Virus record (IMG/VR): IMGVR_UViG_3300018025_000004
Coordinates: 1-61,807 of that record
Source of the DNA: a virus
DNA length: 61,807 bases
Reading direction: 5' to 3' (one strand)
Notes under the pieces: model-generated
Database searches by the model: none
What the model was told of the DNA's origin: nothing
What the model saw: the letters and a program-made list of their open reading frames with translations, nothing else
Part shown: one piece after another, positions 426 to 61,807 of the stretch
Layout: each line of letters starts with the position of its first letter
How positions within the stretch are numbered: position 1 is the first letter of the stretch
Program-made: the position numbers and the translations under genes

Positions 426-1046
426 TCAGGCGGTCAACGCCTTGGTTCCGGCGATAAAGCCCTCAATGACGTGGCGCGCGTCGAATGTCAAAACCTTGGC
501 GTTTTCGTTTTCAAAGCGTGAGAGCATGGCCGCGAGCTGGCCCATGAACGCGATGACACTGGCATTGTCAGCACATTTCTCAATGCGCACGTTATCAGCG
601 TTGAGCGCGACTTTCGCATCTTTGGTAACCGGCGCGTCAACAGGCGCTTTCACGTGGCGCGCGCCGCCGCGCTTGTCAGGATTGACGATTTCAGCCTGCG
701 AAGCAAGCCTATTCCAATGCTTTTCGGCGGCCCGAACCGTGTCATGTTGTGCTTTCGTGCGATAGCCCGCGACTCCTACTTTCTTGTCAGTGAAGGGCTT
801 GAGGCCAATGATGCTAGCAGCCTCATCCTGCTTAATGCCAGTAGCAGCGCAAAGCCGGCCTTCGACATAAGCGCCACGCGAGTTCGCCCAAACGATAATA
901 TAAGCAGCCTCATCGAGATCGGCAAGCGCATTGGTGATGAGAGCGATGGTAGCAGCACGCGCCACTTCGAAGCGCACGAACGATGCGCCTTCCGTCTTAG
1001 CGGCGGAGAAAACGCGAGCGGCGAGATTGTCAGTGAGAACGGCCAT
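426..1046 (-). CDS. Hypothetical protein, 206 aa; candidate DNA-binding regulator by context only
   Basis: ATG at 1046 is preceded by AGGGG 7 nt upstream. Two identical 29-bp operator-like repeats lie upstream. The gene is divergent from the late operon. No family recognised. Confidence 0.7.
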   Translation of the reverse strand: MAVLTDNLAARVFSAAKTEGASFVRFEVARAATIALITNALADLDEAAYIIVWANSRGAYVEGRLCAATGIKQDEAASIIGLKPFTDKKVGVAGYRTKAQHDTVRAAEKHWNRLASQAEIVNPDKRGGARHVKAPVDAPVTKDAKVALNADNVRIEKCADNASVIAFMGQLAAMLSRFENENAKVLTFDARHVIEGFIAGTKALTA

Positions 1047-1098: not shown

Positions 1099-1184
1099 GC
1101 CCACTAGGGCAGGTCAGCACCGCGCTAACCCCTCAACTATCCCTATAGTCGCATAGATCGCAGGCAATGTCAACAGTCGTTATG

Positions 1185-1205
1185 TTTGGGCCATCATGGC
1201 CCAAA
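1185..1205. promoter_or_regulatory. Second copy of the palindrome TTTGGGCCATCATGGCCCAAA
   Basis: Identical 29-bp repeat, 107 bp from the first copy. Confidence 0.7.
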
Positions 1206-14300: not shown

Positions 14301-17300
14301 GCCGTATGGTCTGACCAACCTGCACGAGTTTGTTGCTGAGGCGTTCACGAACCCGTGGTTCCGTGACACCCTCTCTAAGGTCACGATGCCCGGTGAGACC
14401 AAGACCCTCTGGGGCAAGTTCAAGGATGCGGTTAAGCGGTTGTTCAACCAGCCAGAGAAGACCCGCACGGCGCTCGATGAAATTATGGACATGGGGCAAG
14501 ACCTCATGGACGAGCACCAGAAGATCGACGTGTCGCCGCAAAGTGAGGCGATCATGGCCAAACGCGTTGCGGATGAGCATGAGAAAGTCAGCATAGTAGG
14601 CGCAGGCATCTTCCATCAAGCGCAGGATAGCCTCAGCAAGCTGGCCAACCTCGTCTCAAATCCGAAAGAGATGGGCACGAAGATCAGTGCGTTCGCTGAC
14701 TACAATATGACCCGCACACAGATGATCCGGCGTCATGCGGCTGAGTTTGCGTCCGGCGCAACGCAGCACATGGAGGATGCGTGGGCAGCGCACACGGCCA
14801 TTGGTCAAGCTGCGGCAACGACCGGCTTGCATGTTAAGGTCGCCATCGACGGGATTAAGGATGTTGCGACGCGTGATGCGGCGCTGCGGGATGCGTTTTG
14901 GTCGAGCCAGATCGGGGCGCACCCGTTCAAGACGTTTGCGGAGCAGCCGAACCTCCACAACCGTAAGGATCGGGCGATCATTCAGCCGGAAATCGACCGC
15001 ATCGCGAAGGCGTTCAACGACGTGTACCGCCAGAAGGGCGCGCGTGACGCGATCACGCAGGCGCACGCGGCTGGTGAGGCGCAGAACGCATCGCAGATGA
15101 TGCTGGGGCTGCACGAGTTTATGCGCCGGGAGAAATTCGGTGACTTGATTACCGATGCGGACGTGCACGACCAGTTCGCGAATAATGCCGATGCGCACAC
15201 CCCGGCGACTGCGGCTACGTTCTATAGGGCTGCGCTGGATAAGCAGGTCGCCAACATCAAGCAGTTTGTGGATGCGCAGGAAGGCTCTGTCGCCCATCTG
15301 CCCCAGAACGATAGTGCGCGGCAGGCTGTGACGGCGCAGCTCAAAGACTTGAAGGGTCAGCTCAACGCAATCAGCAGTAACTTGATCACCCACGAGCACT
15401 CGCCGTATATGCCTTCCGGTCGTGAGGGTGAATACGCGGCGGCGTTCACGTTGAAGCTCGGCGACGATGGGCAAATCCACCCGCAGGCGTTGGCGGCGTT
15501 ACAGGACGGGCTTGCTGCGCGCGGCCTGAATGTCGGCATCAATCAGCATGTGGATAACCCGAGTGTGTTTATTCGGGTGGGTACGCTCGACAAAGCGCAG
15601 CAGATTGCCGATCTCGCGCAGGATTTGGGTAAGCGCGGCTTGCTGGACGAAAAGGGCGATGCTCCACTGGCAAAGCGGTTGGATGACGATGCCATGGCGA
15701 GCCGCACGCGGCCTGCGTGGGTGAAGCAGATGATGGACAGTGTGGCGCAGGATACGCGTATTCCCGAGGAGCAGCGGGCCGCGATCCATGACCAGCTTCG
15801 TCAGACGTGGGCTGACATTTTGCCGTCGCGTGACGTGGTGCAGCTCGCCCGCAAAAACGTCCAAGGCTTCTCCACTGACGTGGCGCGGGCGCTGGATCGT
15901 CGTAACAGTGTGTGGGCGAACGGGCTTGCCAATCTCGTGACGCAAGAGCGCAAGAACGTCGCGTTTGGTGAGATGCGGGATGATATTGGCAATCTTCAAC
16001 GGCAGCCCGATGTATCCAAGACGGTCAGCGCGCAGAACTGTCTCAATGAGCTGGCTACGCGTGAAGTTGGCCGTGACTGGCGTCCGCAAACGACAGGGGG
16101 TGATACCTTCCGCTCCGCGCTCCATGCGTGGCAGCTCGGCGTGTCCCCCGCGTATTTTGTGCTGGAGCTGTCGCAGGCCCCCATGTTCGTGCTTCCGGCT
16201 ATGTCTGCGGAGCGGGGTATTGCGAAATCCACTGCTGCGCTGACCAGCAACCTTGCTATGACGATTAAAGTCATGCGCGCTATTTCGAGTGGTCCGCTGG
16301 GCAAGTACGGCGTGTTCACCGCGCAGGGGTTGAAGGACGCGAATATCCCGCCGGCTATCGCTGAGCATCTCCTCAAGTGCAACAATCGTGGCTGGTTTGA
16401 AAACTCAGCCACGCGTGAGCTTGGGATGTCTGCGGACGGTCGCGCACAAACCACCACCCAGAAGGCAATCCACTGGGCGAACTTGTCCGCGCTCTACACC
16501 GAAGTTGCCATGCACGTAAACACGGCTCTGGCCGTGAAATCGCTGCACGATACCAAGCCATTCGCGGAGGGGCTGGATGCCGCGACTGACCGCATCATGG
16601 AGAAGGGTCACTGGAAGTGGGGCGCAGGAGAGAACGCGCGCTCCATGGGCAAGCAGGGTTTTGCCGGCAAAGCGACGCCCTATCTGACGCAGTTCATGGG
16701 CTGGCAGATGAAGGCTCTTGAGACCTATTACCGCGAGCTGCACACTGTGTTCAGCGGCGATGCCTCGCGTGATGCGCGAATACAGTCCGCTAAGTTTATC
16801 GGCGGTCATATGGCTGCGGTTGTGGCGTTCTCCGGCTTGTCCGGTTTGCCCACGACGCCGCTTATGGGTCTGGCGTCGAAGGTCATGAACACGCTGACCG
16901 GGTCGGATCAATACGATTTCGAGCAGAACTATCGTAGTTATCTTACAAGCATGTTCGGCAAGGAGTTCGGTGACGCCATGGCGCGCGGTCTTCCGCATCT
17001 GGCCGGATTTGACATGAGCGACGTGGGTGATGAGGGCTTGGTCCCCGGCGGTCGGTTCCTCGCAGATCAGCGGAAGTGGCAGGATGCTTCCAAAGACGCC
17101 GCGTGGCGGTCGATGGGTGCGGGTATCGGCTTCGCGAGCAACGCTGTTGGCGCGATGCAGGATTGGTCGATGGGTAACCCCGAAGCAGCTCTCCGCAAGT
17201 TGCTGCCGGCCACGCTGCGTAACCCGTATGAAGCGTACATGATGCACGAGCATGGCTACGTCAACAACTCGGGCGTGAAGGCACCGATCCAGCCGACGAG

Positions 17301-17664
17301 CGCGGATGTGTGGAAGAAAGCTCTGGGCCTTGAGCCCGCGAGCATGAAGCAGAATGAGGACTTACGCGATCAGGCGGAACGCACCGAGACCATGCAGCAC
17401 AACATCTCCGGTGCCATTGAGGCGAATATCAAGCGCGCAATATCGTATGGTGATGGCTCCTCGTTGCAGGATGCGATACAGAAGGCGCAGGCGTTCAATC
17501 AGACCCACCCGAATACCCCTATCGACGTGAACAAGGCGGCGGTGGGTGTCCAGATGGAGAACGCACGCGCGATTGGGCTGGGGCTGCCTGCTGGCACCGG
17601 CAAACCGACAGATGCGCGCTTGCGCACACGCCTCGACCCGTATTATATTCCGGGTAAGTCCTAA
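11362..17664 (+). CDS. Giant virion-associated multidomain protein (2100 aa) with an ArdC/zincin-like HExxH motif
   Basis: Single uninterrupted ORF. Gly-rich N-terminus. A 69-bp repeat is present 2.4 times. The motif NIMHEMMHSATW...LHEFVAEAF lies near residues 938-995. Confidence 0.8.
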   Translation: MAQITDVQQPALPAVANLPSFAPPRGFGRASLDQLNGGQPSLIGGALSAGTHELGSQFGGFVSALGTTLGMNGVSDWGQQVAQSQAAAAAQNGRPDLDADPWSPSGMAYGLVKGLPMLTGVALAHRLGAKRLAPALGVSEGVGGTLGAGAALYPGMVGSNVETARKANGGELTPNAAAASLAMGVPEAAIGSIVPGNVDKMLARGMAGDWLSRLGKGAAINAGMGGVQGAANTVFNQFLGDQSRPIADRANDVVQSALQGAFQGGVIGGVFGVVGGRKRVAPTATDDALTSAATVPGATDAEPAKTTVGPADASGAAQVGLDLPEQQTPQMADHPLAPEMQGPTIPPEMVNGRQMSLFTPDEEGARQADIFKMRGVVRDALGKAELDPNTDTSFVDNLNATNTPELIKALREQVTRYDRDKDGAMPAWFKELAAAHGVVDETGKTRNLTDEHADLLTQIETQKGAGNGTYQTLLERAAQRKAEGNDARQTVLLDQANTIRARNDEKVAALQKRADELTPLMDQHAQADALPDKFSPKQVPDTLSDKPKAAALYQQMELLRDHSPDPKIAERAARASDLLRSGRQDQMRRAAQIAQDFADRVAREWGYSDRDKPVAPAVDEDAARRAADDTTQPAPAPDTTVDEDAARRAADDTTQPAPAPDTTVDEDAARRVAAEAPETPAEREAAVTAPPATPDAQPVVAAPEGIPFMVTKAMRKTLLERGYTVDDVRNMTPAKAREALQAPTAPTAPPVVDNPTPSPEAQMRVRDEIAPSMLEAQRKELEDHVARTQADRATRLQAERQAALSQTGAYQPPKKSISLGGIQRSKDALATMAEPAGRTQADVDAEHLISNGATGAQVLKHIEDTTTDPNLRRLAKKMRERGLDPTISYGTRDEIEADAQATQGKTFDATNADAAYNETTNHVWLASRENTHQNIMHEMMHSATWKAIEAGGPIAKRMNDLFEQVKRSAAVRLDKAAGKVPYGLTNLHEFVAEAFTNPWFRDTLSKVTMPGETKTLWGKFKDAVKRLFNQPEKTRTALDEIMDMGQDLMDEHQKIDVSPQSEAIMAKRVADEHEKVSIVGAGIFHQAQDSLSKLANLVSNPKEMGTKISAFADYNMTRTQMIRRHAAEFASGATQHMEDAWAAHTAIGQAAATTGLHVKVAIDGIKDVATRDAALRDAFWSSQIGAHPFKTFAEQPNLHNRKDRAIIQPEIDRIAKAFNDVYRQKGARDAITQAHAAGEAQNASQMMLGLHEFMRREKFGDLITDADVHDQFANNADAHTPATAATFYRAALDKQVANIKQFVDAQEGSVAHLPQNDSARQAVTAQLKDLKGQLNAISSNLITHEHSPYMPSGREGEYAAAFTLKLGDDGQIHPQALAALQDGLAARGLNVGINQHVDNPSVFIRVGTLDKAQQIADLAQDLGKRGLLDEKGDAPLAKRLDDDAMASRTRPAWVKQMMDSVAQDTRIPEEQRAAIHDQLRQTWADILPSRDVVQLARKNVQGFSTDVARALDRRNSVWANGLANLVTQERKNVAFGEMRDDIGNLQRQPDVSKTVSAQNCLNELATREVGRDWRPQTTGGDTFRSALHAWQLGVSPAYFVLELSQAPMFVLPAMSAERGIAKSTAALTSNLAMTIKVMRAISSGPLGKYGVFTAQGLKDANIPPAIAEHLLKCNNRGWFENSATRELGMSADGRAQTTTQKAIHWANLSALYTEVAMHVNTALAVKSLHDTKPFAEGLDAATDRIMEKGHWKWGAGENARSMGKQGFAGKATPYLTQFMGWQMKALETYYRELHTVFSGDASRDARIQSAKFIGGHMAAVVAFSGLSGLPTTPLMGLASKVMNTLTGSDQYDFEQNYRSYLTSMFGKEFGDAMARGLPHLAGFDMSDVGDEGLVPGGRFLADQRKWQDASKDAAWRSMGAGIGFASNAVGAMQDWSMGNPEAALRKLLPATLRNPYEAYMMHEHGYVNNSGVKAPIQPTSADVWKKALGLEPASMKQNEDLRDQAERTETMQHNISGAIEANIKRAISYGDGSSLQDAIQKAQAFNQTHPNTPIDVNKAAVGVQMENARAIGLGLPAGTGKPTDARLRTRLDPYYIPGKS
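13213..13376 (+). repeat. 69-bp in-frame tandem repeat, 2.4 copies (VDEDAARRAADDTTQPAPAPDTT)
   Basis: 13213-13281 and 13282-13350 are identical; a partial third copy follows. Confidence 0.9.
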
Positions 17665-40811: not shown

Positions 40812-41237
40812 TTATTTACCCGTAATCAGCAGTGTCGGTTCGGTGAGGGTGCGAGCAATGTTCAGCAGCTCAGCGCCGACCGCGTCAGGCAACTTCTCGC
40901 CCATGGAGGTGTGCACCGTTGCGGTCTCGAACAGCGCCAGCCATTTGGCGAACAGCCCGATGGTCTTTTCGTCCACCACGAACCCGAAACCATCCTCAGC
41001 GTAAATTGACTGGAGATACTGTTTCTGGTTTATGGTCGGTTTGTTTCCGCCGAACTTGGCTTCGACAGCGATGAAGACGCCACGCTTGAGCGCGTTGATG
41101 TCGGACACACCGACCTTGCCGAAGCCGTTGGCCGGCGGCATCCACCAAAACGCACCCCACGCATCCAGCAGCTTCTTGATGTCGTCCTTGACGTGGCGTT
41201 CAGACCCATAGGTCGTGCGTAGCTTGTATGGTTTCAT
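40812..41237 (-). CDS. VRR-NUC domain nuclease
   Basis: GVSDINAL...FIAVEAKFG (D..ExK of the PD-(D/E)XK fold). The pairing with an SNF2 helicase is typical. Confidence 0.7.
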   Translation of the reverse strand: MKPYKLRTTYGSERHVKDDIKKLLDAWGAFWWMPPANGFGKVGVSDINALKRGVFIAVEAKFGGNKPTINQKQYLQSIYAEDGFGFVVDEKTIGLFAKWLALFETATVHTSMGEKLPDAVGAELLNIARTLTEPTLLITGK

Positions 41238-41569
41238 GCTTGATCCCTCCTAATTAACCCACAACCAATCTCGTTCGAGATTGCATCGACAGCCGCTCTA
41301 TACGCGTCATAGACTGGCTCCATACGTTCGACAAACTTAGGCATGAGTAGGTGCCAGTCGGCCGCGTCGAAGTCATCCTGTTCCGGGGTGAACATCGCCG
41401 GAGGACGTTTCGGTATTGTGTCCCAATAGACGAATGTGAATAATCCCGGCTCGTCACGCGTTGCCTTTCGCACGTAGTGACCAACTTCGTCGCAGTGCGT
41501 TCGCCATGCAATCCGTGTGATATACACACCATTCTTGACGAGACGTTCTAGTGCGTCATCCCATGTCAT
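41234..41569 (-). CDS. DUF2829 / Tad2-like domain protein
   Basis: MTWDDALERLVKNGVYITRIAW ... FTPEQDDFDAADWHLL matches the remembered DUF2829 pattern. It carries a ~35-aa C-terminal extension. Confidence 0.5.
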   Translation of the reverse strand: MTWDDALERLVKNGVYITRIAWRTHCDEVGHYVRKATRDEPGLFTFVYWDTIPKRPPAMFTPEQDDFDAADWHLLMPKFVERMEPVYDAYRAAVDAISNEIGCGLIRRDQA

Positions 41570-42265: not shown

Positions 42266-43096
42266 TCAGCCGCCCATGGCCTCAACCAGTTTGTCGATGC
42301 GAGCCTGCAACGCCGGCTCCAGATCGTTCTCGTACAGGGCCGTGCTGGCGAGGTTCAGGACGAGCTTCGCTTCATCCCGGCTCCACTTGGCTGCGACCGG
42401 GGCCGGACGGGGCGTAAGGGCCGCCTGACCCTTCGGCTCGTGCAGGATCGAGTGCTTCTTGGTGGCCTTCGTCTTGCCCTCAGCCGCCGCCGTGGCCACC
42501 GCGTCCTTGAGGATCGTCGTGGCTTCCGTGGCGTGCTCGCGGACAGTCTCAGCAGCGAAGGTCGCCGACACACGCCCCTCCCGAACGAGCTGGTGGACCT
42601 CAGCCGGGGCCGACTGGAAGTCGAGGAGCTGCGCCACGCACGACTGGCTCTTGCCGATCCGCCGCGCCACGTCGGTGATGGACAGACCGAAGGTGAGGGC
42701 GCGCTTCACGAGCTGCCCCTCCTCCAGCATGGTGAGGGCCTTGCCAGAGTTGGACGTGCTCTGCCGCAGCAGCCGGTCCACGTCGTTGATGCCGCGTCCC
42801 TCCGGCACGCAGGGGACGGTCGGGATTTCAAAGCCCTCGGCGATCAGCTCCTTGACCGCAGTCAGGCGGCAGTGCCCAGCGCCGACGAAGACCTCGTCAC
42901 CGACCGAGAAAATCTCCAGCGGGTGGGAGGGCAAGAACCCCACCTCGCGGATGGAGGCCTTGAGATAATCAATGTGCACGCGAGTGTCCGGCGAGGTCAG
43001 ATCGCGTGCGTTGAGGCCCGGCTGGATGTCAATTTCCAACGGGTTAAAATTCAGGAGAGCCGAACGGCTCACCGCCATATCTTTTAAGCTGGCCAT
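42266..43096 (-). CDS. ParB-like nuclease-domain / HTH protein
   Basis: ParB N-domain GAGHCRLTA and HTH ITDVARRIGKSQSCVAQL. No parA partner seen. Confidence 0.65.
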   Translation of the reverse strand: MASLKDMAVSRSALLNFNPLEIDIQPGLNARDLTSPDTRVHIDYLKASIREVGFLPSHPLEIFSVGDEVFVGAGHCRLTAVKELIAEGFEIPTVPCVPEGRGINDVDRLLRQSTSNSGKALTMLEEGQLVKRALTFGLSITDVARRIGKSQSCVAQLLDFQSAPAEVHQLVREGRVSATFAAETVREHATEATTILKDAVATAAAEGKTKATKKHSILHEPKGQAALTPRPAPVAAKWSRDEAKLVLNLASTALYENDLEPALQARIDKLVEAMGG

Positions 43097-43119
43097 GGTT
43101 GCACCTTGGGGATTGAGGT

Positions 43120-43665
43120 TTAGTCGAGGGTGATGCTGAGCGCGCACGCCACCTTGTGCAGGTGCAGCGCTTGAGTGATCGCATCGTCCACGGCGTTGTG
43201 GAACACGCCGGAACGCTCCAGTTTGAGGGTGGGGGCGAGGCTCTTGACCGTGCGGTAGCAGCGGTCATGCCAGAACTTCCACGGTGTTTCGAGACCCAGA
43301 CGCTCGTAGGCGCGGCGCAGGATCACGTTGTCGAAGGTCGAGCCGTTGCCCCAGAGGGGCAGGCTCTTGTCGCCGAACCACATGGCGAGACCCTCCAGCG
43401 CCGACACAATGTCAACGCGGTCGGAGCCGAGCAGCGACGTGCGAGCCTCGTTACGCTCGGCGTCCATCCACCAGAGGACAGTGGCGGGGTCCATGACGCC
43501 GCCGAACTTGTGGGCCGACGCCGGGTCGATGGCGACGTAGAACTTGTCGCGGATGGGGTTCTCGTTGGCCGGGGTGTTGGGGTCGAACTTCACCGCTCCA
43601 ATGGAGAGGATCAAGGCGTCGTTGTTGGTGCCGAATGTTTCGATGTCAACCATAACATGGTTCAT
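43120..43665 (-). CDS. DnaQ-like 3'-5' exonuclease
   Basis: ExoI VDIETFG, ExoII GNGSTFDN, ExoIII HNAVDDA. The start at 43665 lies just downstream of an operator palindrome. Confidence 0.8.
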   Translation of the reverse strand: MNHVMVDIETFGTNNDALILSIGAVKFDPNTPANENPIRDKFYVAIDPASAHKFGGVMDPATVLWWMDAERNEARTSLLGSDRVDIVSALEGLAMWFGDKSLPLWGNGSTFDNVILRRAYERLGLETPWKFWHDRCYRTVKSLAPTLKLERSGVFHNAVDDAITQALHLHKVACALSITLD

Positions 43666-43691: not shown

Positions 43692-43713
43692 TTTGGGACA
43701 GGGTTGTCCCAAA
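43692..43713. promoter_or_regulatory. Operator palindrome TTTGGGACAGGGTTGTCCCAAA
   Basis: 22-bp dyad filling the gap between the stop at 43715 and the exonuclease start at 43665. Confidence 0.7.
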
Positions 43714-51154: not shown

Positions 51155-51525
51155 TACTCTTGTCCTTTGTGTGACGTGTATAGCGCTTCACGGGCATTAC
51201 CGTAAAGCACACGGTCGATTGTGGTTTGGGCGTCCATACGCCCAAGATAGTGCCGTGTCGCGCGTGGGTGCGCTGGTGCCTCGATTGATACAATCTCACC
51301 CACATGCAGCGAGCGCAGGATGTCGTCTTGCCAAGTTGGTGCGTCGCCGAGCGGGGGGAGCACAACCCAGTCACCAAACTTGGGACAGTCATCCTCTGGC
51401 ACCAAGTATGAGACTAGAACGTCGCCGAGCGGTCTGGGTGCTAGGGTACGGAGCGCCCTTGTCTGGGATTTCCTGCGTCCGTCAGGGATACGGACAGCCA
51501 CACTCCTCAGTCCTGCCGGCATCAC
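51154..51525 (-). CDS. Hypothetical protein, 123 aa
   Basis: GTGATG start overlaps the upstream stop. Confidence 0.5.
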   Translation of the reverse strand: MMPAGLRSVAVRIPDGRRKSQTRALRTLAPRPLGDVLVSYLVPEDDCPKFGDWVVLPPLGDAPTWQDDILRSLHVGEIVSIEAPAHPRATRHYLGRMDAQTTIDRVLYGNAREALYTSHKGQE

Positions 51526-52385
51526 ACACCCCCGAACGAACGCATGAAGCCCTTCATGGTCTCCATGATGTCCGCAGCCTCGGCGACCACGCCGTCGCGC
51601 ATATCCTTATCCTTGCGCAGTTCCTTCGGTGTGCAGGAGCTGACCAGCGCGCGCAGTTCCTTGTAGATGCGCGTCATGTTGGTGTCGCCGGTCAGGTTCA
51701 GGCCGGGCAGGATTTCCACCAGCTCCTGCAAGTTGGTGATGGTGGTGTTACGGAACACCGCCGTCTCGTCGCCGAGCTTCGTAACGAAGTGGGTCAAGGT
51801 TTGGGACAGTCTGTCCCAAACGTCCGCCATCGCACGACCGAGACGTGCGTTCATCGCCGCGTCCATCGACGCCTGAATTTCAGCCACGGCGGCGTCGTCC
51901 AGCGTCACGCGGAAGTCGCTGGCCTCCGTCACCGCGTCGATGGACAGGTTGACATAGAACTTGCCGCGCAGCTCCTCCGCGTTGGGATAGTCGTTCTCAT
52001 CGAACAGCGTCCCCATACGGAACTCAGCGCGCGCGCGAGCCTCGGGGTAGGTGCGGGTCAAGAAGACTTCCACCGCGTCGGTGAACTCGCCGACCAGCAC
52101 TTCATGCTGGGTCATGAAGCTGGCGTACATCTTGCGCGTCAGCACGCGGTCGCCGTTGTCCTTCCATGGCAACGTCTTGTTGTAGAGGTGCGCGCGGATC
52201 AGCCCGTAGGTCGTGGTGACAGTCTTCAACGCTTCACGCGGGATGAGGTGCTTGTTGACACGCGCGGCGTCGTCGTTCGCGCCAGCGTTATCGGTGACCT
52301 GCTTGGAGGCCAGCTTGTCGAGGCGATAGCCCTGCCAAGCGCCCATCGAAAGGTTCACAATCATGCAGTTGGTCGAGATAGACAT
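51522..52385 (-). CDS. DUF3150-like protein
   Basis: The N-terminus MSIS.NCMIVNLSMGAWQGYRLDK.. recalls the DUF3150 proteins that accompany CobS/CobT-like pairs on plasmids and ICEs (from memory). Confidence 0.45.
   Translation of the reverse strand: MSISTNCMIVNLSMGAWQGYRLDKLASKQVTDNAGANDDAARVNKHLIPREALKTVTTTYGLIRAHLYNKTLPWKDNGDRVLTRKMYASFMTQHEVLVGEFTDAVEVFLTRTYPEARARAEFRMGTLFDENDYPNAEELRGKFYVNLSIDAVTEASDFRVTLDDAAVAEIQASMDAAMNARLGRAMADVWDRLSQTLTHFVTKLGDETAVFRNTTITNLQELVEILPGLNLTGDTNMTRIYKELRALVSSCTPKELRKDKDMRDGVVAEAADIMETMKGFMRSFGGV
51800..51820. promoter_or_regulatory. Intragenic operator palindrome TTTGGGACAGTCTGTCCCAAA
   Basis: Perfect 21-bp dyad inside the DUF3150-like CDS (codons V-W-D-R-L-S-Q-T). 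Confidence 0.6.
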
Positions 52386-55046: not shown

Positions 55047-55070
55047 GTGGGTTACTCCTGTTGGTTAGTG

Positions 55071-55146
55071 TTTGGGACCACGTATGACCGGCTGCGCCGG
55101 TCATTCTGGTTTGGGACAGTATGTCCCAAACAATCATGTCCCAAAC
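55071..55146. promoter_or_regulatory. 75-bp composite operator element, copy a
   Basis: Order of parts: TTTGGGACC; palindrome ATGACCGGCTGCGCCGGTCAT (55084-55104); TTTGGGACAGTATGTCCCAAA (55110-55130); half-site TGTCCCAAA (55137-55145). Confidence 0.75.
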
Positions 55147-55166
55147 CATTAGTGGTTAGGCGTACA

Positions 55167-55388
55167 TCAAGCCTTGAAGACGCCGTCCCAAGCGAGGGCA
55201 AATGCCCGCGCCTCGAACTCTTGGTCGTGCGGAAACCTGTAGGTGCACCGCATTACACGCACGTCATCCACGGACGTTAGTGGCACCCCATACTTGTCAC
55301 ACCACACAAGAACGTACCATTTCCCGTCGCCCGGACGACGGCGCGAGTTCGGTTTAAGGTATTCAGGCAGACCACGGGGGCTGGGCAT
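55167..55388 (-). CDS. Hypothetical protein, 73 aa
   Basis: Excellent SD AGGAGG 6 nt upstream of ATG 55388. Confidence 0.6.
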   Translation of the reverse strand: MPSPRGLPEYLKPNSRRRPGDGKWYVLVWCDKYGVPLTSVDDVRVMRCTYRFPHDQEFEARAFALAWDGVFKA

Positions 55389-55390
55389 TG

Positions 55391-56434
55391 TTACCTCCTG
55401 AACGTATCCCGGTAGAGCTTGGAGTAATCCATGAACGCCGGGGTGGCGTAGAGGGCCTCGTCTCGCTTGGTGGCGAACTGCCACGCAAGTGCCACGAACT
55501 CCGGGTCCATACGCTTGATATACGTGTGGATGGTCGTAGCGTTGGTCACAGTCATGTCGCCGGCCAGCGCCATGGTGACGGCGTAACGCATCGCCAGCTC
55601 CTCGTCTTTTGGGACCGGCGCAGTAGTCGGGTCTTTCATGATGCGAGGGATATAGTCCTTGAGCGTGGCCCACACATCCGCGAACGCATAGGCTTCGGCA
55701 GCCGGGCCATCGCCGATAGCGCCAGCCATTGCCGCCTGCTTCACCGCATCCGGCGCGTTCGCTTTCCAGAACTTCCACGCTTTCTCAGCGGTGCGCGGCG
55801 TGCTGACTGTCTTGATCGTGGGCTTCGACGGATCGAAGGTGTTCAACAGCTCCTTGCGAAACTGATAGAACGCCAATGCGATGGGCGGCAGCACGCCTTT
55901 CTGCTGCTGATAGTGGCACCAATCATCGACGGATACCACGACCTCGGCATGAACAAAGCGGTTGGCCAGCGGCAGGGGCTGCTTGTTGGTCACGCCCCTG
56001 TCGATCTCGCGGTTACCCGCCGCCACGATGCGCACGTTCTTGCGCAGACGATGCTCGCCAACACGACGGTCGTTCACGAGCTGGTATGCGACCGCAGCCG
56101 TGGCCGCCGACGCCGCGTTAATCTCATCGAGGAATAACCAGATGATCCCCTTATTGGAGAACGCCGGGTTACCGATGAACGGCAGCGTGGCCGGTGCGTA
56201 CCATGTGGTCAGGCTGGTCACTTCGTCCACGCCGGGGAAGCCGCGAAGGTCCACACTGTCGTACTGCGATAGGCGCACGTCAACGAGCACGGTGTCCTCC
56301 GTTTCGTCGGCGAGCTGCGCCATCAGCTCCGACTTGCCGACGCCGAATTGGCCCCAGAGCATGACGGGCTCGTTCTGTTCCAGAGCGACAAAACGAATAA
56401 AGGCTTTGGTTTCGGGGATCGTGAGGCTGTGCAT
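55391..56434 (-). CDS. AAA+ ATPase, MoxR/CobS-like
   Basis: Walker A GQFGVGKS and Walker B WLFLDEIN. SD AGGAG. Confidence 0.8.
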   Translation of the reverse strand: MHSLTIPETKAFIRFVALEQNEPVMLWGQFGVGKSELMAQLADETEDTVLVDVRLSQYDSVDLRGFPGVDEVTSLTTWYAPATLPFIGNPAFSNKGIIWLFLDEINAASAATAAVAYQLVNDRRVGEHRLRKNVRIVAAGNREIDRGVTNKQPLPLANRFVHAEVVVSVDDWCHYQQQKGVLPPIALAFYQFRKELLNTFDPSKPTIKTVSTPRTAEKAWKFWKANAPDAVKQAAMAGAIGDGPAAEAYAFADVWATLKDYIPRIMKDPTTAPVPKDEELAMRYAVTMALAGDMTVTNATTIHTYIKRMDPEFVALAWQFATKRDEALYATPAFMDYSKLYRDTFRR

Positions 56435-56460
56435 AATGTATTACTCCTGTTAAAGTGTGC

Positions 56461-56478
56461 GGCCCACATGTGTGGGCC
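56461..56478. promoter_or_regulatory. Perfect 18-bp palindrome GGCCCACATGTGTGGGCC
   Basis: Lies between the AAA+ gene start and a plus-strand ORF. The half-site TGTGGGCC resembles TTTGGGCC but is in everted orientation. Confidence 0.45.
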
Positions 56479-56497
56479 ATGTGAGAGGATAGTTACT

Positions 56498-56815
56498 ATG
56501 GTTGACGAACCGAATGTCGAAGTCGATGCGGCCGTGATCGAAATTACCATCCGGGTCGCTGGCGTCAATGGGCACCAGCCGCTGACGCCGCAGAACGCCG
56601 CCGCCGTGGGCGTTGACCCTGCGGCGGCTCAGCCGGGCAGCGCCTCGGCCAGCGACCAGACCACGGCCGCCGTGGGCGTTGACCCTGCGGCGGCTCAGCC
56701 GGGCAGCGCCTCGGCCAGCGACCAGACCACGGCCACCACGACCGTCCAGCCCAGCGCCGGCCAGAACGCCGCCCAGAACCCCGCCCAGAACCCCGCCCAG
56801 AACCCGGCGGTGTAG
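56498..56815 (+). CDS. Possible plus-strand repeat protein, 105 aa
   Basis: GAGAGGA 9 nt before the ATG. Two 66-bp repeats and three AQNP repeats. Its 3' 121 nt are antisense to the transposase-like ORF. The two frames share wobble positions, so codon bias cannot decide between them. Confidence 0.35.
   Translation: MVDEPNVEVDAAVIEITIRVAGVNGHQPLTPQNAAAVGVDPAAAQPGSASASDQTTAAVGVDPAAAQPGSASASDQTTATTTVQPSAGQNAAQNPAQNPAQNPAV
56600..56805. repeat. 66-bp tandem repeat x2 (56600-56731) and 12-bp GCCCAGAACCCC x3 (56769-56805)
   Basis: Exact nucleotide repeats. Confidence 0.9.
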
Positions 56816-57636
56816 AGGTGCAAGTCTTGACGGCTGACCTGATGGTGTGCGCCGTCAAGACTGCGCTTGCTATTGCCGAAAAAGCCCTCAACGGTGTTCG
56901 TCGTCACGTTTCGGCCAGAACGATAGTCGTAATAGCCATACTCATCGGCAGAATGGTTCACCGTCGAGTGTGATGCAAAATCCTTGCCCGCCTTGGTGTA
57001 GAGCGGGGACTCGTCGGTATTGAGGTGAGCCTCCTCCGACACATGATGCTTTAAAAGTGTGCTGATGGTTTTCCCGTTGACGCGCTCGGCAACCGTAGAC
57101 CGCACATCACCGCCACGTTGTACCAGAGACACCACAGCAATCTTGTTGCCGGTATAGCCACGCCCCTTACCCTTTGCCTTTCCGCCGATATAGGTTTCGT
57201 CGGCCTCGACCTCACCAGTCAGCAACCCGGCAGGATTCGCATCCTTGAGGGCGAACCGGATGCGGTGACAGAGAAAGAGCGCCGTGCGGTAGGAGCCAAG
57301 CTCAAGCTGGCGCTGCAACTGGAGCGCCGAAACCTGCGTCTTGCTGGCACACATCATATAGAACGCGATCAGCCACTTATTCAGCGGGATTTTCGACGCC
57401 TCCATGACGGTGCCGACGGTTACGGTGAAGGTGTCAGTGCATTCGCCACATTTGTAGAGGCCGGGCCGCGTGCCCGTCTTGGCGTTTGCGGAGCGCGCGT
57501 AAATTTTCTCGCAGCTGCCGCAGTGCGGGCAGACCGGGCCATTCGGCCAGCGCACACGCTCGAAATAGGCGCGCGCGGCCTCCTCGGTGGAGAACCGACG
57601 CATGATTTCCATAAGGGTTAGATCAGGATAGATCAT
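56695..57636 (-). mobile_element. IS1595/ISXO2-family transposase-like gene, C-terminus replaced; no IS ends identified
   Basis: Zn-ribbon CPHCGS..CGEC. DDE contexts EADETYIGG, LNTDES, TNTVEGFF. Family similarity stops after ..DLHLY and continues as GFWAGFWAGFW. Start at ATG 57636, behind AAAGAGAG. Confidence 0.7.
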
Positions 57637-57667
57637 TGTCTTACTCTCTTTAGTTGGGTCATGAATG

Positions 57668-57718
57668 TTTGGGACATTCTGGTTTGGGACACGAAAGTTT
57701 GGGACATGGTGTCCCAAG
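57668..57718. promoter_or_regulatory. Operator array: three direct TTTGGGACA half-sites at 15-bp spacing, the last forming a palindrome
   Basis: Half-sites start at 57668, 57683 and 57698. The dyad TTTGGGACATGGTGTCCCAAG spans 57698-57718, 32-82 nt upstream of the transposase-like start. Confidence 0.7.
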
Positions 57719-57820
57719 GTCTTACGCGGTGGCCGCGCATCGTGTCGAGACCACGTTGCAAGTCATGGAGAAGTCTCTTGAGTATGCTGTACCATACCAC
57801 ACCCTAGGGGTGATGTCAAG

Positions 57821-58132
57821 TCATACCCCCCTCCCACGCTCAGCCATTGCGCGTAATATAGGACCGTCAGGCATAGCGAAGCCCGCACTCGCTAAACAAG
57901 CGAGACACTCATGCAGTGAGGCGTCCCGCATCATCAGCGTAGAGACACCGAGTGTACGTGCTAAATGCCAGTGAGGCGCTTTATAGGCCAGACGCAACAC
58001 AACGATTGCATGTTGTGTCCGATTACCCGCACGCGTTGTCTCGCAACACTCAAATACGGTGATAGCCTCACCGGTGTGCGAACTACCGCACGCCCTCCAA
58101 AACTCTACGGTCTCAAAGACTTCCTTGGCCAT
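57821..58132 (-). CDS. Early hypothetical protein, 103 aa
   Basis: ATG 58132 behind AAAGGAGAAAGCG. The upstream extension in the ORF track is a translation of the leader module. Confidence 0.55.
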   Translation of the reverse strand: MAKEVFETVEFWRACGSSHTGEAITVFECCETTRAGNRTQHAIVVLRLAYKAPHWHLARTLGVSTLMMRDASLHECLACLASAGFAMPDGPILRAMAERGRGV

Positions 58133-58213
58133 CGCTTTCTCCTTTGTCACGTTCTCTTTTGTCACGTTCGCCAAACGCCCTTGGGCGTTATGGCTCGGTG
58201 ATGTTCGGTGATG
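58133..58213 (-). promoter_or_regulatory. Hairpin leader module (core 58174-58189) plus two GGTGATGTT(C) units
   Basis: GTCACGTTC.. x2, then CGCCAAACGCCCTTGGGCGTTATGGCTCGGTGATGTTCGGTGATGTT. Confidence 0.7.
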
Positions 58214-58288
58214 TTTGGGACCACGTATGGCCGGCTGCGTCGGTCATTCTGGTTTGGGACAGCATGTCCCGAACAATCATGTCCCAAA
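58214..58288. promoter_or_regulatory. 75-bp composite operator element, copy b
   Basis: Same order and orientation as copy a. The inner palindrome ATGGCCGGCTGCGTCGGTCAT (58227-58247) carries two G.T positions. The dyad lies at 58253-58273. Confidence 0.75.
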
Positions 58289-58326
58289 GATCGCGGCGTA
58301 GTAGTTACTTTCTATTTCCAGCGCGG

Positions 58327-58515
58327 TCATCGGTTGCGCTCGCGGTCAGCCTCAGACGCAGTGCGCGCACGCCGCACACGTTCCCGCCGTGTCAGTTCGG
58401 GGTGGTTATTGTTCAGGCTTGCGCAGACCGTAGGCGCGGTCAACGCTATCGACATGAGAGAGCGTACATTCGTGAGGGCGCGCAAGTCTCCCAACTCCAG
58501 CATGTAAGTCATCAT
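58327..58515 (-). CDS. Early small basic protein, 62 aa (tentative)
   Basis: ATGATG behind GGGAG. Arg-rich C-terminus. The alternative is a 49-codon ORF (58406..58555) that starts right after AAAGAGAGCG. Confidence 0.35.
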   Translation of the reverse strand: MMTYMLELGDLRALTNVRSLMSIALTAPTVCASLNNNHPELTRRERVRRARTASEADRERNR

Positions 58516-58555
58516 CCAAGCTCCCAATTGCAAGTGCTATCGTCTCAAAGCTCAT

Positions 58556-58675
58556 CGCTCTCTTTGATCACGTTCTCTTTTGTCACGTTCGCCAAACGCC
58601 CTTGGGCGTTATGGCTCGGTGATGTTCGGTGATGTTCGGTGATGTTCGGTGATGTTCGGGACACCATGTCCCAAA
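58556..58675 (-). promoter_or_regulatory. Hairpin leader module (core 58595-58610), four 10-bp GGTGATGTTC units and the operator TTCGGGACACCATGTCCCAAA (58655-58675)
   Basis: Exact repeat family. The operator abuts the stop codon of the 232-aa gene. Confidence 0.7.
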
Positions 58676-58677
58676 GG

Positions 58678-59376
58678 TTAGCCAAACAGCCGCGCGAGGA
58701 TCGAGGCGATGACCCCACGCTTGGGCTGCGCGTGCGCCCCACCCATCTCGCCATAGCCGGCCTTGAAGTTCTTGGCGGGGTGGGCGATGAAGTGATCTTG
58801 GATAGTGGGCGCGCGTGAGGGTGATACACCCTGCGCACCATAGGTGGTGAGGCCAAGCAACGAGGCGTTGGAGGCCTCGTTAAAGAACACGTCGGCCACG
58901 ACAGCCTTCTCTTTTTCATCCACGCCGGGGAAGCCGCACGTGTCATCGAGGGGCTGGTCATGGTTACGGTCATGGTTACGGTCAAGAAACTGAGCGTAGA
59001 TGGCCTTGGAAATCGCCATCATGGCCTGCTCGTGCTCAGCGTAGGCACGCTCGTGCCGCGCCAGCCGGGTCTGGAGGTCAGCCGCCGAGCCGGCAGGTAG
59101 GGAGACCCCATAGGCAGGCAGGGAGGGCTGGAGGGGCTCGCCCTCGTCAAACAGGAGCCAGTCCGCTCCGAGGCTCACGGCCAGCGCGATGCAGGCGTTC
59201 AGGTCGTGCTGGAGTAACTGCGATCCCTCATGGACGACCGCCACCATCCAGCCAGTTTCACCGTGCTGGTAGGTCTGCGGAACCGTCACGTCGTTGCAGT
59301 CCAGCGCCAGTTTGGTGAGCGGGGTCAGGTGGCGAGTGGATAGGGCGAGGATGCTCTCAAGGGGTGCGTTGGTCAT
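58678..59376 (-). CDS. Early protein, 232 aa
   Basis: ATG 59376 behind GTGACAAAAGAGAGAATAAAC. No family confirmed. Confidence 0.6.
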   Translation of the reverse strand: MTNAPLESILALSTRHLTPLTKLALDCNDVTVPQTYQHGETGWMVAVVHEGSQLLQHDLNACIALAVSLGADWLLFDEGEPLQPSLPAYGVSLPAGSAADLQTRLARHERAYAEHEQAMMAISKAIYAQFLDRNHDRNHDQPLDDTCGFPGVDEKEKAVVADVFFNEASNASLLGLTTYGAQGVSPSRAPTIQDHFIAHPAKNFKAGYGEMGGAHAQPKRGVIASILARLFG

Positions 59377-59609
59377 GTTTATTCTCTCTTTTGTCACGTT
59401 CTCTTTTGTCACGTTCTCTTTTGTCACGTTCGCCAAACGCCCTTGGGCGTTATGGCTCGGTGATGTTCGGTGATGTTCGGTGATGTTCGGTGATGTTCGG
59501 TGATGTTCTCTTTTGTCACGTTCGCCAAACGCCCTTGGGCGTTATGGCTCGGTGACGCGCGCAAGAGCGCAGGCCTGAGGCCGAGCACGAGCAAGCCACG
59601 AGGATGGGG
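59377..59609 (-). promoter_or_regulatory. Two tandem leader modules (cores 59436-59451, 59528-59543), GTCACGTTCTCTTTT x3, TGATGTTCGG x5 (59461-59508) and the 60-bp outer element (59551-59609)
   Basis: All are exact or near-exact copies of sequences at 58.1-58.7 kb, 60.4-60.7 kb and 1.35-1.47 kb. Confidence 0.75.
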
Positions 59610-59617
59610 CGCAGTAG

Positions 59618-60382
59618 TTATGGGCAGATTATATCGTCGTCGTCATCGTCAGCGTGGATAACCACACCCGAGAACTTCAAGGCTTTGGTTTGGGACGCCT
59701 TGTCCCAAAGCTCGAAGCGGGTCCAGCCGCCACCAGCCCCAAGGGCGGGCTCATGGCGTGGCCGCCAGAAGGCAGTGCCGAGGCCGTACTCGGTGTCGGT
59801 CTCCAGCAGGCGCAGCACATGGTCCTCGGGCTGCTCACCCATGTCGGCAAGGAAGTCTTTGAACTTGTGCCAACGTGGGTGCAGGTAACGCGGCGGGTTA
59901 AAGCGCCGGCTCTCGTCCGCGCCCATACACCGCATCTTGATGAATGTGTATGTGCGGTAAGTCTTGGTCTGGTTCTCGCCAGCGTGGCCGTGGCTCACGT
60001 TGCCATGCAGTGTCATGTCCATGTCAGCCGGCGTGAGTGCAGGTCGCGCTCTGCTTGCCTCAAGGCGGCGCTGCGCAGCGTGCAACACCGGAGGCTCATG
60101 TGTTACTGGCTCAACCAATGGCTGGAGCTTGCGACCGAAGGACGTGGCGCTATGCTCTTTGATCTGGTCAATCTTCACTCTGGAAGTTTCCAGCGCTGTT
60201 GTCCTTGCTTCACGTATTATGCGTTGGGCAGTTTCGCGCTGCTCTCGCTTTGCCTCATGGCGCGCAGCGATCTTGGCCGCGCCCTCGGGCGTATAGACAC
60301 GCGTCTTGTATGTCTTGCGTTTGGGTGGGTGACGTTTGGCGAACGTCCCGTCAGGCTGCTTGACCCAGATCGTCTCGGACAT
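59618..60382 (-). CDS. First early protein, 254 aa, with an RC-x-n-W..F..F..DMG-type putative DNA-binding domain and a poly-Asp tail
   Basis: KTYRTYTFIKMRCMG....RYLHPRWHKFKDFLADMGEQPEDHVL pattern. ATG 60382 behind GTGACAAGAGAGAGAGAGCG. Confidence 0.6.
   Translation of the reverse strand: MSETIWVKQPDGTFAKRHPPKRKTYKTRVYTPEGAAKIAARHEAKREQRETAQRIIREARTTALETSRVKIDQIKEHSATSFGRKLQPLVEPVTHEPPVLHAAQRRLEASRARPALTPADMDMTLHGNVSHGHAGENQTKTYRTYTFIKMRCMGADESRRFNPPRYLHPRWHKFKDFLADMGEQPEDHVLRLLETDTEYGLGTAFWRPRHEPALGAGGGWTRFELWDKASQTKALKFSGVVIHADDDDDDIICP
59689..59709. promoter_or_regulatory. Intragenic operator palindrome TTTGGGACGCCTTGTCCCAAA
   Basis: Lies inside the 254-aa CDS (codons L-W-D-K-A-S-Q-T). 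Confidence 0.6.
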
Positions 60383-60738
60383 GATGTTCGCTCTCTCTCT
60401 CTTGTCACGTTCGCCAAACGCCCTTGGGCGTTATGGCTCGGTGATGTTCGGGACACCATGTCCCAAAGGTTAGCCGAACGCCCTTGGGCGTTATGGCTCG
60501 GTGATGTTCGGTGATGTTCGCTCTTTTGTCACGTTCGCCAAACGCCCTTGGGCGTTATGGCTCGGTGATGTTCGGGACACGATTGTTCGGGACATGCTGT
60601 CCCAAACCAGAATGGCCGGCAGCGCCGGCCATACGTGGTCCCAAAGGTTAGCCGAACGCCCTTGGGCGTTATGGCTCGGTGATGCGCGCAAGAGCGCAGG
60701 CCTGAGGCCGAGCACGAGCAAGCCACGAGGATGTGGGG
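60383..60738 (-). promoter_or_regulatory. Array of four hairpin cores (60417, 60477, 60541, 60655), operator 60447-60467, inverted composite element c (60571-60645) and outer 60-bp element (60679-60738)
   Basis: Densest repeat cluster in the window. No ORF with a plausible start. Confidence 0.75.
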
Positions 60739-60815
60739 ACAGACCCCGACTTACCTATGTACTATACACCACCCCCAAGGCGTTGTCAAGGGGGTCACCC
60801 TCGTGGCTTGCGCGT

Positions 60816-61147: not shown

Positions 61148-61290
61148 CCACGACGTTAATTCTTTGTATCGTCCACGACGTTAATTCTTTGTATCGTCCA
61201 CGACGTTAATTCTTTGTATCGTCCACGACGTTAATTCTTTGTATCGTCCACGACGTTAATTCTTTGTATCGTCCACGACGTTAATTCTTT
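61148..61290 (+). repeat. 25-bp iteron CCACGACGTTAATTCTTTGTATCGT, 5.7 tandem copies
   Basis: Exact copies start at 61148, 61173, 61198, 61223 and 61248; a partial copy starts at 61273. Confidence 0.95.
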
Positions 61291-61308
61291 GGGACACGGT
61301 GGTCCAAA
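61288..61308. promoter_or_regulatory. Operator-like dyad TTTGGGACACGGTGGTCCAAA fused to the last iteron
   Basis: Matches the reverse complement of the 195-215 site apart from one position. The CGACGTTAATTC flank is in direct orientation at both sites. Confidence 0.6.
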
Positions 61309-61680: not shown

Positions 61681-61734
61681 CAAACACCACGACAGTTTTT
61701 CCAATCACGTATTACGACGCCGGCTGTAAGTGAC
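61681..61734. repeat. Right arm of the 54-bp inverted repeat
   Basis: See 60816-60869. It overlaps the terminal 79-bp unit family. Confidence 0.85.
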
Positions 61735-61807
61735 TTAGCGCGGCTCGTCGTGGTGTGTGTATCCACCACGACAGTTTTTCCAATCACGTATTACGACGCC
61801 GGCTGTA
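61686..61807. repeat. Terminal 79-bp unit copies (partial 61686-61740, then 61741-61807 = nt 1-67)
   Basis: Exact identity with the left end of the window. Confidence 0.9.

Follow-up and report, generated by a model that had tools for sequence, protein, structure and literature searches.

In lambdoid phages, the Cro and CI dimers read a dyad in which roughly one helical turn separates the specificity bases, the regulators control their own synthesis, and operator-protein pairs differ among related phages. The c repressor of phiC31 reads a 17-bp inverted repeat that recurs at many early promoters of one phage genome. In T4-type phages, promoter early stem-loop (PeSL) cassettes are promoter-plus-hairpin units that lie between small early genes and coincide with mosaic junctions; to our knowledge, no dedicated phage binder has been proposed for them. 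The stoperators of cluster A mycobacteriophages are served by an immunity repressor, L5 gp71 and its relatives (PMC9283540, PMC6550527), and the IncP plasmid RK2 is under the global control of KorB and KorA, which act via palindromic operators (PMC11790492, PMC3199767). Here we describe a repeated 21-bp palindrome (hereafter dyad) in the uncultured phage sequence IMGVR_UViG_3300018025_000004 from IMG/VR (61,807 nt, 60.5% G+C; this whole stretch is referred to as the window). We propose that the dyads are probably DNA operators, read by a regulator that the phage itself encodes: the 206-amino-acid (aa) protein of a minus-strand gene (426-1046; hereafter gene 1).

As with stoperators, one short site is present in many copies that occupy intergenic gaps downstream of promoters, within transcribed early regions: 12 of the 14 dyads in the window are non-coding and most are downstream of the promoters at 60789 and 57819. 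The proposed regulator is likewise phage-encoded, and the specificities of site and protein diverge together among relatives. However, stoperators are asymmetric 13-14-bp sites that are read by a monomer and oriented with transcription, whereas the sites described here are palindromes with free centres, set in a module that occurs in both orientations. Moreover, the protein family is unrelated, and Pfam and PHROG scans of ~45 window proteins (not every small open reading frame, ORF) found no integrase or lysogeny module, no classical repressor and no gp71-type homolog. RK2 is, similarly, a mobile element with ~12 copies of one palindrome at promoters and operon boundaries, whose regulator controls its own operon; unlike KorB, which is a ParB-family CTPase clamp, our candidate is one of a family of ~135-206-aa orphans without a ParB domain. 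In common with lambdoid Cro/CI there are dyads at the regulator's own promoter, which they bracket in the window; in two relatives a dyad lies 22 nt upstream of the -35 hexamer (L162) or abuts it (L189). In contrast to Cro/CI, neither Pfam nor Foldseek detects an HTH_3/Cro fold, there is no divergent repressor/cro switch, and 14 sites are spread over 18 kb in place of two tripartite operators. The phiC31 system differs in host phylum, protein family and site sequence, and PeSLs differ in that here the dyad core changes together with a phage protein. Lastly, lambda N acts at nut sites, where the boxB loop is recognised together with boxA; here, the 3-nt centre is unconstrained, there is no Rfam match, and a boxA-like CGCTCTT is present in a repeated leader but not adjacent to the dyads.

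Dyad sites and their placement

The repeated 21-base palindrome is a real feature of this genome. Its consensus is TTTGGGACA-N3-TGTCCCAAA and, close variants included, it is present in 14 copies. The exact pattern GGGAC-N5-GTCCC occurs eight times against 0.11 expected, and none of 100 shuffled sequences attained eight. The family had been picked out in a first-pass annotation of the sequence alone. The TTTGGGAC half-site was found 23 times in the window against 1.22 expected. A scan allowing ≤2 mismatches to TTTGGGAC-N5-GTCCCAAA located dyads starting at 51800, 55110, 57698, 58253, 58655, 59689, 60447, 60586 and 61288, to which are added the GGGCC-type variants at 195, 281, 1078 and 1185 and the site at 43692-43713, whose centre is 1 base longer than that of the other dyads. 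The sites at 195 and 281 are hybrids: each arm is a valid half-site, but the two arms are not complementary to each other. Half-sites also stand alone, at 55071, 55138, 57668, 57683, 58214, 58281, 60571 (TTCGGGAC) and 60638, at a distance of 15 or 39 bp from dyads.

The dyad coordinates of the first-pass annotation all hold. The same is true of its empty region between 2 and 43 kb, in which we found no dyad even with ≤3 mismatches, and its lone half-sites are real, although at least two had been placed one base off. Its description of the family as phage-wide was too broad, as the sites are confined to the leftward early/replication arm and a repeat-rich non-coding region. The predominance of non-coding dyads is observed even though a simple gene call makes ~90% of the window coding; the coding exceptions are the sites at 51800 and 59689 (Table 1). 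Some copies belong to longer repeats. An 87-nt module is duplicated at 55059-55145 and 58202-58288, with an inverted copy at 60571-60645, whilst a 42-nt unit containing a dyad has copies at 58646 and 60438 and a 29-nt unit containing a dyad has copies at 1071 and 1178.

An orphan gene family beside the dyads

The exact 21-bp pattern was recovered from 20 IMG/VR stretches, many of them with 3-5 intergenic copies. One group of these contigs (~50% G+C) has only an AAA/VWA gene pair in common with the window, at ~25% identity. In every contig of this group an ORF of ~135 aa begins 20-32 nt after a dyad, and the 206-aa protein of the window is the positional ortholog of this ~135-aa family. The two share a short motif, ...AAxKxWNR...KRGGAR. 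Homology between the 206-aa protein and the family is detected pairwise (E 5e-5), by hhalign over the helix and RGGAR (probability 83%, E 8.7e-6) and with a family hidden Markov model (HMM) built without window-type sequences (E 3.4e-5). Among 1.84 billion proteins the family forms 48 clusters at an identity threshold of 50% and ~100 at a threshold of 90%; every one of them is metagenomic. Neither the family nor the 206-aa protein has a Pfam, PHROG or PDB profile match, and a tblastn search of cultured phages with one family member, P0010, returned nothing.

In uncultured phages of 47-65 kb the family gene invariably comes first and diverges from the small terminase gene. The window and the family phages have a gene order in common, in which the small terminase gene diverges from gene 1 and gene 1 is followed by small early genes, an AAA ATPase, DUF2201/VWA and DUF3150. 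The wider family motif is G-x-x-F-Y...A-A-x-x-x-W/Y-X-R...R-G-G (alignments A4 and A6), which the window protein matches in both sequence and position (G91, Y95, A107, W111, R113, R126-G127-G128). In 11 of the 12 phages read, the start codon of the family gene has a dyad within ~35 nt (about 9-32) on its upstream side; in the twelfth, a dyad lies ahead of a small ORF just upstream of that gene. A second dyad is often found just past the stop codon. In the window, the centres of the two dyads at 1078-1098 and 1185-1205, on either side of the promoter-like element of gene 1, are 107 bp apart. A promoter scan with 16-18 nt spacers did not call this element; in an alignment with L148-L150 it is invariant and the dyads beside it vary. 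An AlphaFold2 model of P0010 (predicted local distance difference test score, pLDDT, 84) consists of two long helices, a beta-hairpin, a helix holding the motif (residues 72-85), a disordered basic RGGAR segment and two C-terminal helices.

In two group-b phages, from a lineage compared below, the gene 1 dyad is preceded at a distance of ~65-90 nt by an extended -10 promoter (TGnTATAAT; L157:9870-9970 and L155:9880-9990). In L157 a terminator-like hairpin (GCCAAGC...GCTTGGC, then a T-run) separates this promoter from the dyad; the arrangement might form a small leader RNA or act as an attenuator.

Covariation of dyad and protein

Family phages without the GGGAC dyad carry, at the same positions, TTTGCTACA-N3-TGTAGCAAA, TTTGCGACA-N3-TGTCGCAAA or versions of these with a 2-nt centre. 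Within the genome of a relative all dyads switch type together; dyads of an odd type number one or two per phage (L008:4897; L163:8769; L164:6829; L159:8845 and 9012; L158:4109). The dyad core tracks a single residue, X, which in the best-conserved helix of the gene 1 protein is flanked by the conserved W/Y and R. Where X is N or D, the core is GG (TTTG-GG-ACA; the window, L015, L008, L010, L155, L002, L006 and L156). An S at this position (W-S-R) goes with a CT core (L153/L154, L158 and the hybrid protein of L161), and Q or E with a CG core (L159, L163-L165, L160, L181, L186 and L187).

We compared this covariation in two lineages, the group-b phages and the window's own clade (50-64% protein identity). 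In the latter, L162, whose terminase is 61% identical to that of the window, has CT-type dyads and a helix reading W-T-R. A further relative, IMGVR_UViG_3300028558_000003, shows 50-64% identity to the window across many genes; its dyads are of the CG type, with one of them at the position of window 43692 and another abutting the gene 1 -35. For this phage Q or E was predicted at X before gene 1 was fetched, and the sequence reads Y-E-R. The hybrid protein P0019 combines a GG-type upstream part of the motif with WSR-TIGK and goes with CT dyads, which localises the specificity determinant. The CG-type proteins P0071 and P0088 are distant from each other, given that they are 67% and 35% identical to P0010, respectively. 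Moreover, at a homologous junction (...ctctcaaagaag followed by the dyad) the dyad is of the GG, CT or CG type depending on the phage and the sequence downstream differs. Exchange of early-gene cassettes at the dyads is suggested by such sequences.

The first-pass annotation had attributed the sites to the regulon of one dimeric DNA-binding protein but saw no repressor-type gene to account for them. The idea of a single dimeric reader fits these data, and it is correct that no known repressor family is found by Pfam or PHROG. However, synteny, operator adjacency and residue-to-base covariation bring forward the 206-aa orphan, which that annotation had named only among the proteins to test and which is probably the missing regulator: a member of a new family, yet of a known kind, namely a phage regulator with a multi-operator regulon.

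The same dyad in Clostridia

The exact dyad TTTGGGACA-N3-TGTCCCAAA was also found in at least 120 bacterial-genome stretches against ~9 expected (18 specified bases in 596 Gb; our own estimate). Among the matches listed (L021-L140), nearly all are conjugative or mobilizable elements of Oscillospiraceae or Lachnospiraceae. The centre of these dyads is mostly AAA/TTT, there are often 3-7 copies per 8 kb (e.g. L112:263-6955), and they precede relaxase, PrgI-like, methylase and cargo genes. The identical dyad in mobile elements of gut Clostridia is a lead toward its reader in these elements.

Proposed mode of action and alternative readings

From this pattern we infer that the gene 1 protein binds the dyads as a symmetric dimer, which would set one alpha-helix per half-site (...AAEKHW-N112-R... 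in the window; residues 72-85 in P0010), with the basic RGGAR tail coming after the motif helix. The base pairs that vary between dyad types (arm positions 5-6) are 11 bp apart in the two half-sites, that is one turn of B-DNA, and therefore both helices could reach the same DNA face. The protein would control its own gene via the two dyads bracketing the promoter-like element, making gene 1 an insulated unit. It may act further at the dyads downstream of both early promoters and between early gene cassettes, which precede the 254-aa, 103-aa, transposase-like, VWA and exonuclease-ParB genes; others of its presumed sites are in the repeat-rich non-coding region. Since most sites are inside transcribed leaders and intergenic gaps, the action is most likely negative, combining autoregulation with a roadblock to, or shut-off of, early transcription. 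Activation or antitermination by the gene 1 protein is less likely.

Several observations weigh against this proposal. A number of window dyads are copies within longer duplicated intergenic units (40-100 nt), so that there are ~8 independent occurrences and not 14, which is still far above chance. The residue code has an exception in L185 and L182, where W-D-R goes with CG-type, N2-spaced dyads, and L184 is ambiguous. Both gene 1 dyads of L148/L149 differ from those of the window despite an identical helix. Within the window, the sites around gene 1 are GGGCC variants and those elsewhere are of the GGGAC type, making two affinities or two binders possible. The homology of the 206-aa protein to the family consists of ~40 aligned residues plus synteny, and its AlphaFold2 model is poor (pLDDT 49). 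For the better model, that of P0010, Foldseek found nothing below E 0.4 in PDB and BFVD and no recognisable DNA-binding fold. Finally, no gene 1 relative was found when the 120 Clostridia loci (8-kb stretches) were searched with the W-x-R...RGG motif and the family HMM.

The dyads could alternatively function in early transcripts as RNA hairpins with a 9-bp stem and a 3-nt loop. Bound by the arginine-rich RGGAR segment of the gene 1 protein, these would control translation, RNA stability or terminator read-through, much as in the case of lambda N and boxB or of a translational repressor. We regard this as unlikely. Most sites do lie in transcribed leaders and intergenic gaps, both arms switch jointly in relatives such that pairing is kept, and in the composite module the T-tract of a terminator-like hairpin extends over a dyad arm. 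The upstream gene 1 dyad of group-b phages is in the 5′ untranslated region, 8-12 nt from the ribosome-binding site, a position that would also be suitable for control at the RNA level. The dyad after gene 1 is followed by an intrinsic terminator within 3-9 nt in these phages, but regular pairing with a terminator is limited to this one dyad. Moreover, the 3-nt centre is free, with 22 different triplets among 55 sites, and the arms are conserved; an unconstrained loop on a stem of fixed sequence is the reverse of most protein-hairpin recognition. Lone half-sites are unable to form stems, and the arms of the hybrid sites at 195 and 281 are mismatched. Dyads are found upstream of or against the gene 1 -35 in three phages (the window, L162 and L189), others are in the repeat-rich non-coding region, the composite module is present in both orientations relative to transcription, and no Rfam family matches. 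Taken together, the free centre, the 11-bp spacing, the lone half-sites, the non-pairing hybrid arms, the two orientations and the -35-adjacent dyads favour duplex DNA read by a dimer, and we consider it likely that the dyads are read in this form.

If duplex DNA is what is read, the reader could be the ParB/KorB-like protein (42266-43147), which would bind the dyads as dispersed parS-/OB-like sites and silence neighbouring genes. No other window protein has a recognised DNA-binding domain; its matches are to HTH_ParB (8e-7), phrog_1033 (5e-48) and, weakly, KorB. The exonuclease-ParB operon has a dyad ahead of it, at a position that is kept in a relative, where the counterpart is of the TTTGCGACA type (L180:6514), and KorB itself regulates via palindromic operators spread over its plasmid (PMC11790492). 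The putative recognition helix of the ParB-like protein reads KSQSCVAQ in the GG-type window and KSAGYVSQ in a CG-type relative; however, this is a single comparison between two proteins that differ at 40% of positions anyway, whereas the residue-level covariation that was repeated twice belongs to gene 1. A 52%-identical ParB relative occurs in L147 without a dyad in 12.6 kb, no homolog was seen in the dyad-rich early regions of group-b phages (of which parts of the genomes were read), and there is no ParA. We therefore hold a role for this protein as the reader to be improbable.

A reading that dispenses with a dedicated binder would make the dyads structural or recombinational boundary elements, delimiting exchangeable early cassettes or small mobile intergenic units. 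In its favour, the early region is made of repeated ~40-100-nt intergenic units bearing dyads, of which one is an insertion relative to close relatives; single 'foreign-type' dyads stand at mosaic junctions in L008, L158, L159 and L163-L165; and the dyad flanks cargo and transfer genes in the Clostridia elements. Boundary elements fail to explain why there is one core per genome, which differs between close relatives and tracks one gene 1 helix, or why dyads are promoter-proximal at gene 1. The boundary and operator roles are mutually compatible. As a full explanation, we give the former only a very slim chance.

Other candidates were rejected. A host protein, which the exact dyad in otherwise dissimilar contigs might suggest, was dropped because close relatives carry switched dyads. 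At the far end of the IS1595-like gene there is no inverted repeat to match, so the dyads are not its terminal repeats; this, and the switching of the core with gene 1, also removes mobile palindromes of the repetitive extragenic palindrome (REP) or miniature inverted-repeat transposable element (MITE) kind. N4-type hairpin promoters (with the 2100-aa protein) do not account for non-conserved flanks, sites without direction and covariation that lies with gene 1, and the spacing and key bases do not fit a sigma-54 or extracytoplasmic function (ECF) promoter.

Operators read by the gene 1 protein would provide a probable function for an orphan protein family and for a conspicuous repeat in a group of uncultured phages that matched no cultured relative. 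They would also supply a protein-DNA recognition rule with three natural operator-regulator pairs, orthogonal pairs that are useful for synthetic regulation, and show how early-gene cassettes are punctuated and possibly exchanged in these phages. A more far-reaching hypothesis, which we put forward as speculative and on balance doubtful, is that the gene 1 family represents a new DNA-binding fold with a near one-residue code (N/D to GG, S/T to CT, Q/E to CG) and confers immunity without lysogeny. If true, apparently virulent phages would form heterotypic 'specificity groups', in which an incoming phage has its early genes shut off by the regulator of a resident phage of matching type. Moreover, the operator dyads would double as junctions for early-gene cassette exchange, and the Clostridia dyad would be a sign, across phyla, of a related reader not yet recognised or of strong convergence on this site.

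Genome context and further observations

The window divides into two arms. Rightward structural genes, including those for the terminase, the portal and a Phage_capsid_4 capsid protein, occupy 1801-33627, and leftward genes occupy 33780-60382. The latter include a DUF927 primase-helicase, a SNF2 helicase, a PD-(D/E)XK nuclease, the ParB-like protein, an exonuclease and PolA, together with putative dCTP deaminase-like and ThyX-like genes that were named by eye. Also in the leftward arm are DUF2201/VWA, an AAA_5 ATPase, the IS1595-type transposase-like gene, DUF5983, several small ORFs and the 287-aa gene, which is the counterpart of the weak-DUF3150 gene of relatives and has no Pfam match of its own. 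Dyads and composite modules follow both leftward promoters (60789-60761 and 57819-57791), ahead of the first ORFs (Table 1). The two window ends have an 80-bp repeat in common, and in other assemblies of the same phage the 206-aa gene is joined to the 254-aa gene over ~1.6 kb of non-coding DNA; the genome is therefore circular or terminally redundant. Megablast of both arms against cultured phages gave no match, and PolA attains only 28% identity, to Xp15 and to Acinetobacter phages. A literature string search for the dyad matched unrelated primers only, and Rfam and tRNA scans were without a match.

Table 1. Dyads, half-site arrays, promoters and the proposed regulator gene in the window.
Feature	Position	Strand	Remarks
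Hybrid dyad TTTGGGCC-N5-GTCCCAAA	195-215	.	Repeat-rich non-coding region downstream of gene 1
Hybrid dyad TTTGGGCC-N5-GTCTCAAA	281-301	.	Dyad scan
Gene 1, 206-aa orphan, proposed dyad-binding regulator	426-1046	-	Motif RAAEKHW111-N112-R113LASQAE...KRGGAR
Dyad TTTGGGCCATCATGGCCCAAA	1078-1098	.	31 nt upstream of gene 1 ATG, between promoter-like element and ribosome-binding site
Gene 1 promoter-like element TTGACA-20 nt-TATAGG	1145-1180	-	Non-canonical spacing; invariant in relatives
GGGCC-type dyad, identical to that at 1078	1185-1205	.	11 nt upstream of TTGACA of gene 1 promoter-like element
Dyad, centre 1 base longer	43692-43713	.	26 nt upstream of exonuclease-ParB operon
Perfect dyad	51800-51820	.	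Within 287-aa gene (51522-52385)
Composite module: half-site, GC-rich hairpin, dyad (55110-55130), second half-site	55071-55145	+	Upstream of VWA/DUF2201 gene
Two direct half-sites 15 bp apart, then dyad (57698-57718)	57668-57718	.	Downstream of promoter 57819-57791; 61 nt upstream of IS1595-type transposase-like gene
Sigma-70-like promoter TTGACA-17-TATGGT, TG before second hexamer, 10/12 matches	57791-57819	-	
Composite module, copy 2, dyad 58253-58273	58214-58288	+	
Dyad	58655-58675	.	2 nt past stop codon of DUF5983 gene
Perfect dyad	59689-59709	.	Within 3′ part of 254-aa gene
Dyad in leader	60447-60467	.	64 nt upstream of 254-aa gene
Composite module, copy 3, inverted, dyad 60586-60606	60571-60645	-	Leader downstream of early promoter
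Strong sigma-70-like early leftward promoter TTGACA-17-TATAGT, 11/12 matches	60761-60789	-	
Degenerate dyad TTTGGGACACGGTGGTCCAAA	61288-61308	.	Closes array of 25-bp tandem repeats

The early region (58135-60736 and 1356-1470) is built of repeated intergenic units, one of which, of ~104 nt, is present six times. A 90-nt leader (CCCCATCCTCGTGGCTTGCTCGTGCTCGGCCTCAGGCCTGCGCTCTTGCGCGC..., with the boxA-like CGCTCTT) has three minus-strand copies; a fourth, at 1356-1470, runs rightward and represents an insertion in comparison with the close relatives L148/L149. Most of the intergenic repeat units of the early region contain the hairpin AACGCCCAAGGGCGTT. Directly 5′ of early ORFs are tandem arrays (58616-58659, 59457-59508, 59385-59431 and 58137-58169) built from two short units, one of 10 nt, TCGGTGATGT, in 4-5 copies and one of 15 nt, TCTCTTTTGTCACGT, in 2-3 copies. 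Read on the coding strand, the 15-nt unit is GAACGTGACAAAAGA and extends into ribosome-binding sites.

Beside gene 1, a perfect 25-bp repeat is present in 5.8 copies at 61148-61291 and terminates in a dyad, and ~80-bp repeats with CCACGAC/GTCGTGG motifs span the window ends (1-120 and 61685-61807). These two sets of repeats look like iterons or a packaging/replication region.

The IS1595-type gene (56695-57636; DDE_Tnp_IS1595 at 1.7e-26, with a zinc ribbon) is inside the early operon and has its own promoter and operator array. No terminal inverted repeats were seen for it, and at its 3′ end it continues into tandem repeats of 66 bp and 12 bp (56600-56805). In the structural arm, the 2100-aa ORF (11362-17664) has no Pfam match and contains a perfect 69-bp tandem repeat at 13211-13373. 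The 254-aa ORF (59618-60382) is the first after the early promoter; its C-terminal residues 134-211 match phrog_8790, annotated as a restriction endonuclease, at 2e-6, and a 40%-identical homolog is found at the same place in a CG-type relative (L174). Lastly, the ORF at 41234-41569 has a weak Tad2-like (Thoeris anti-defence 2) match (8e-5) and that at 58678-59376 a DUF5983 domain (1e-12), and both are possible counter-defence genes.

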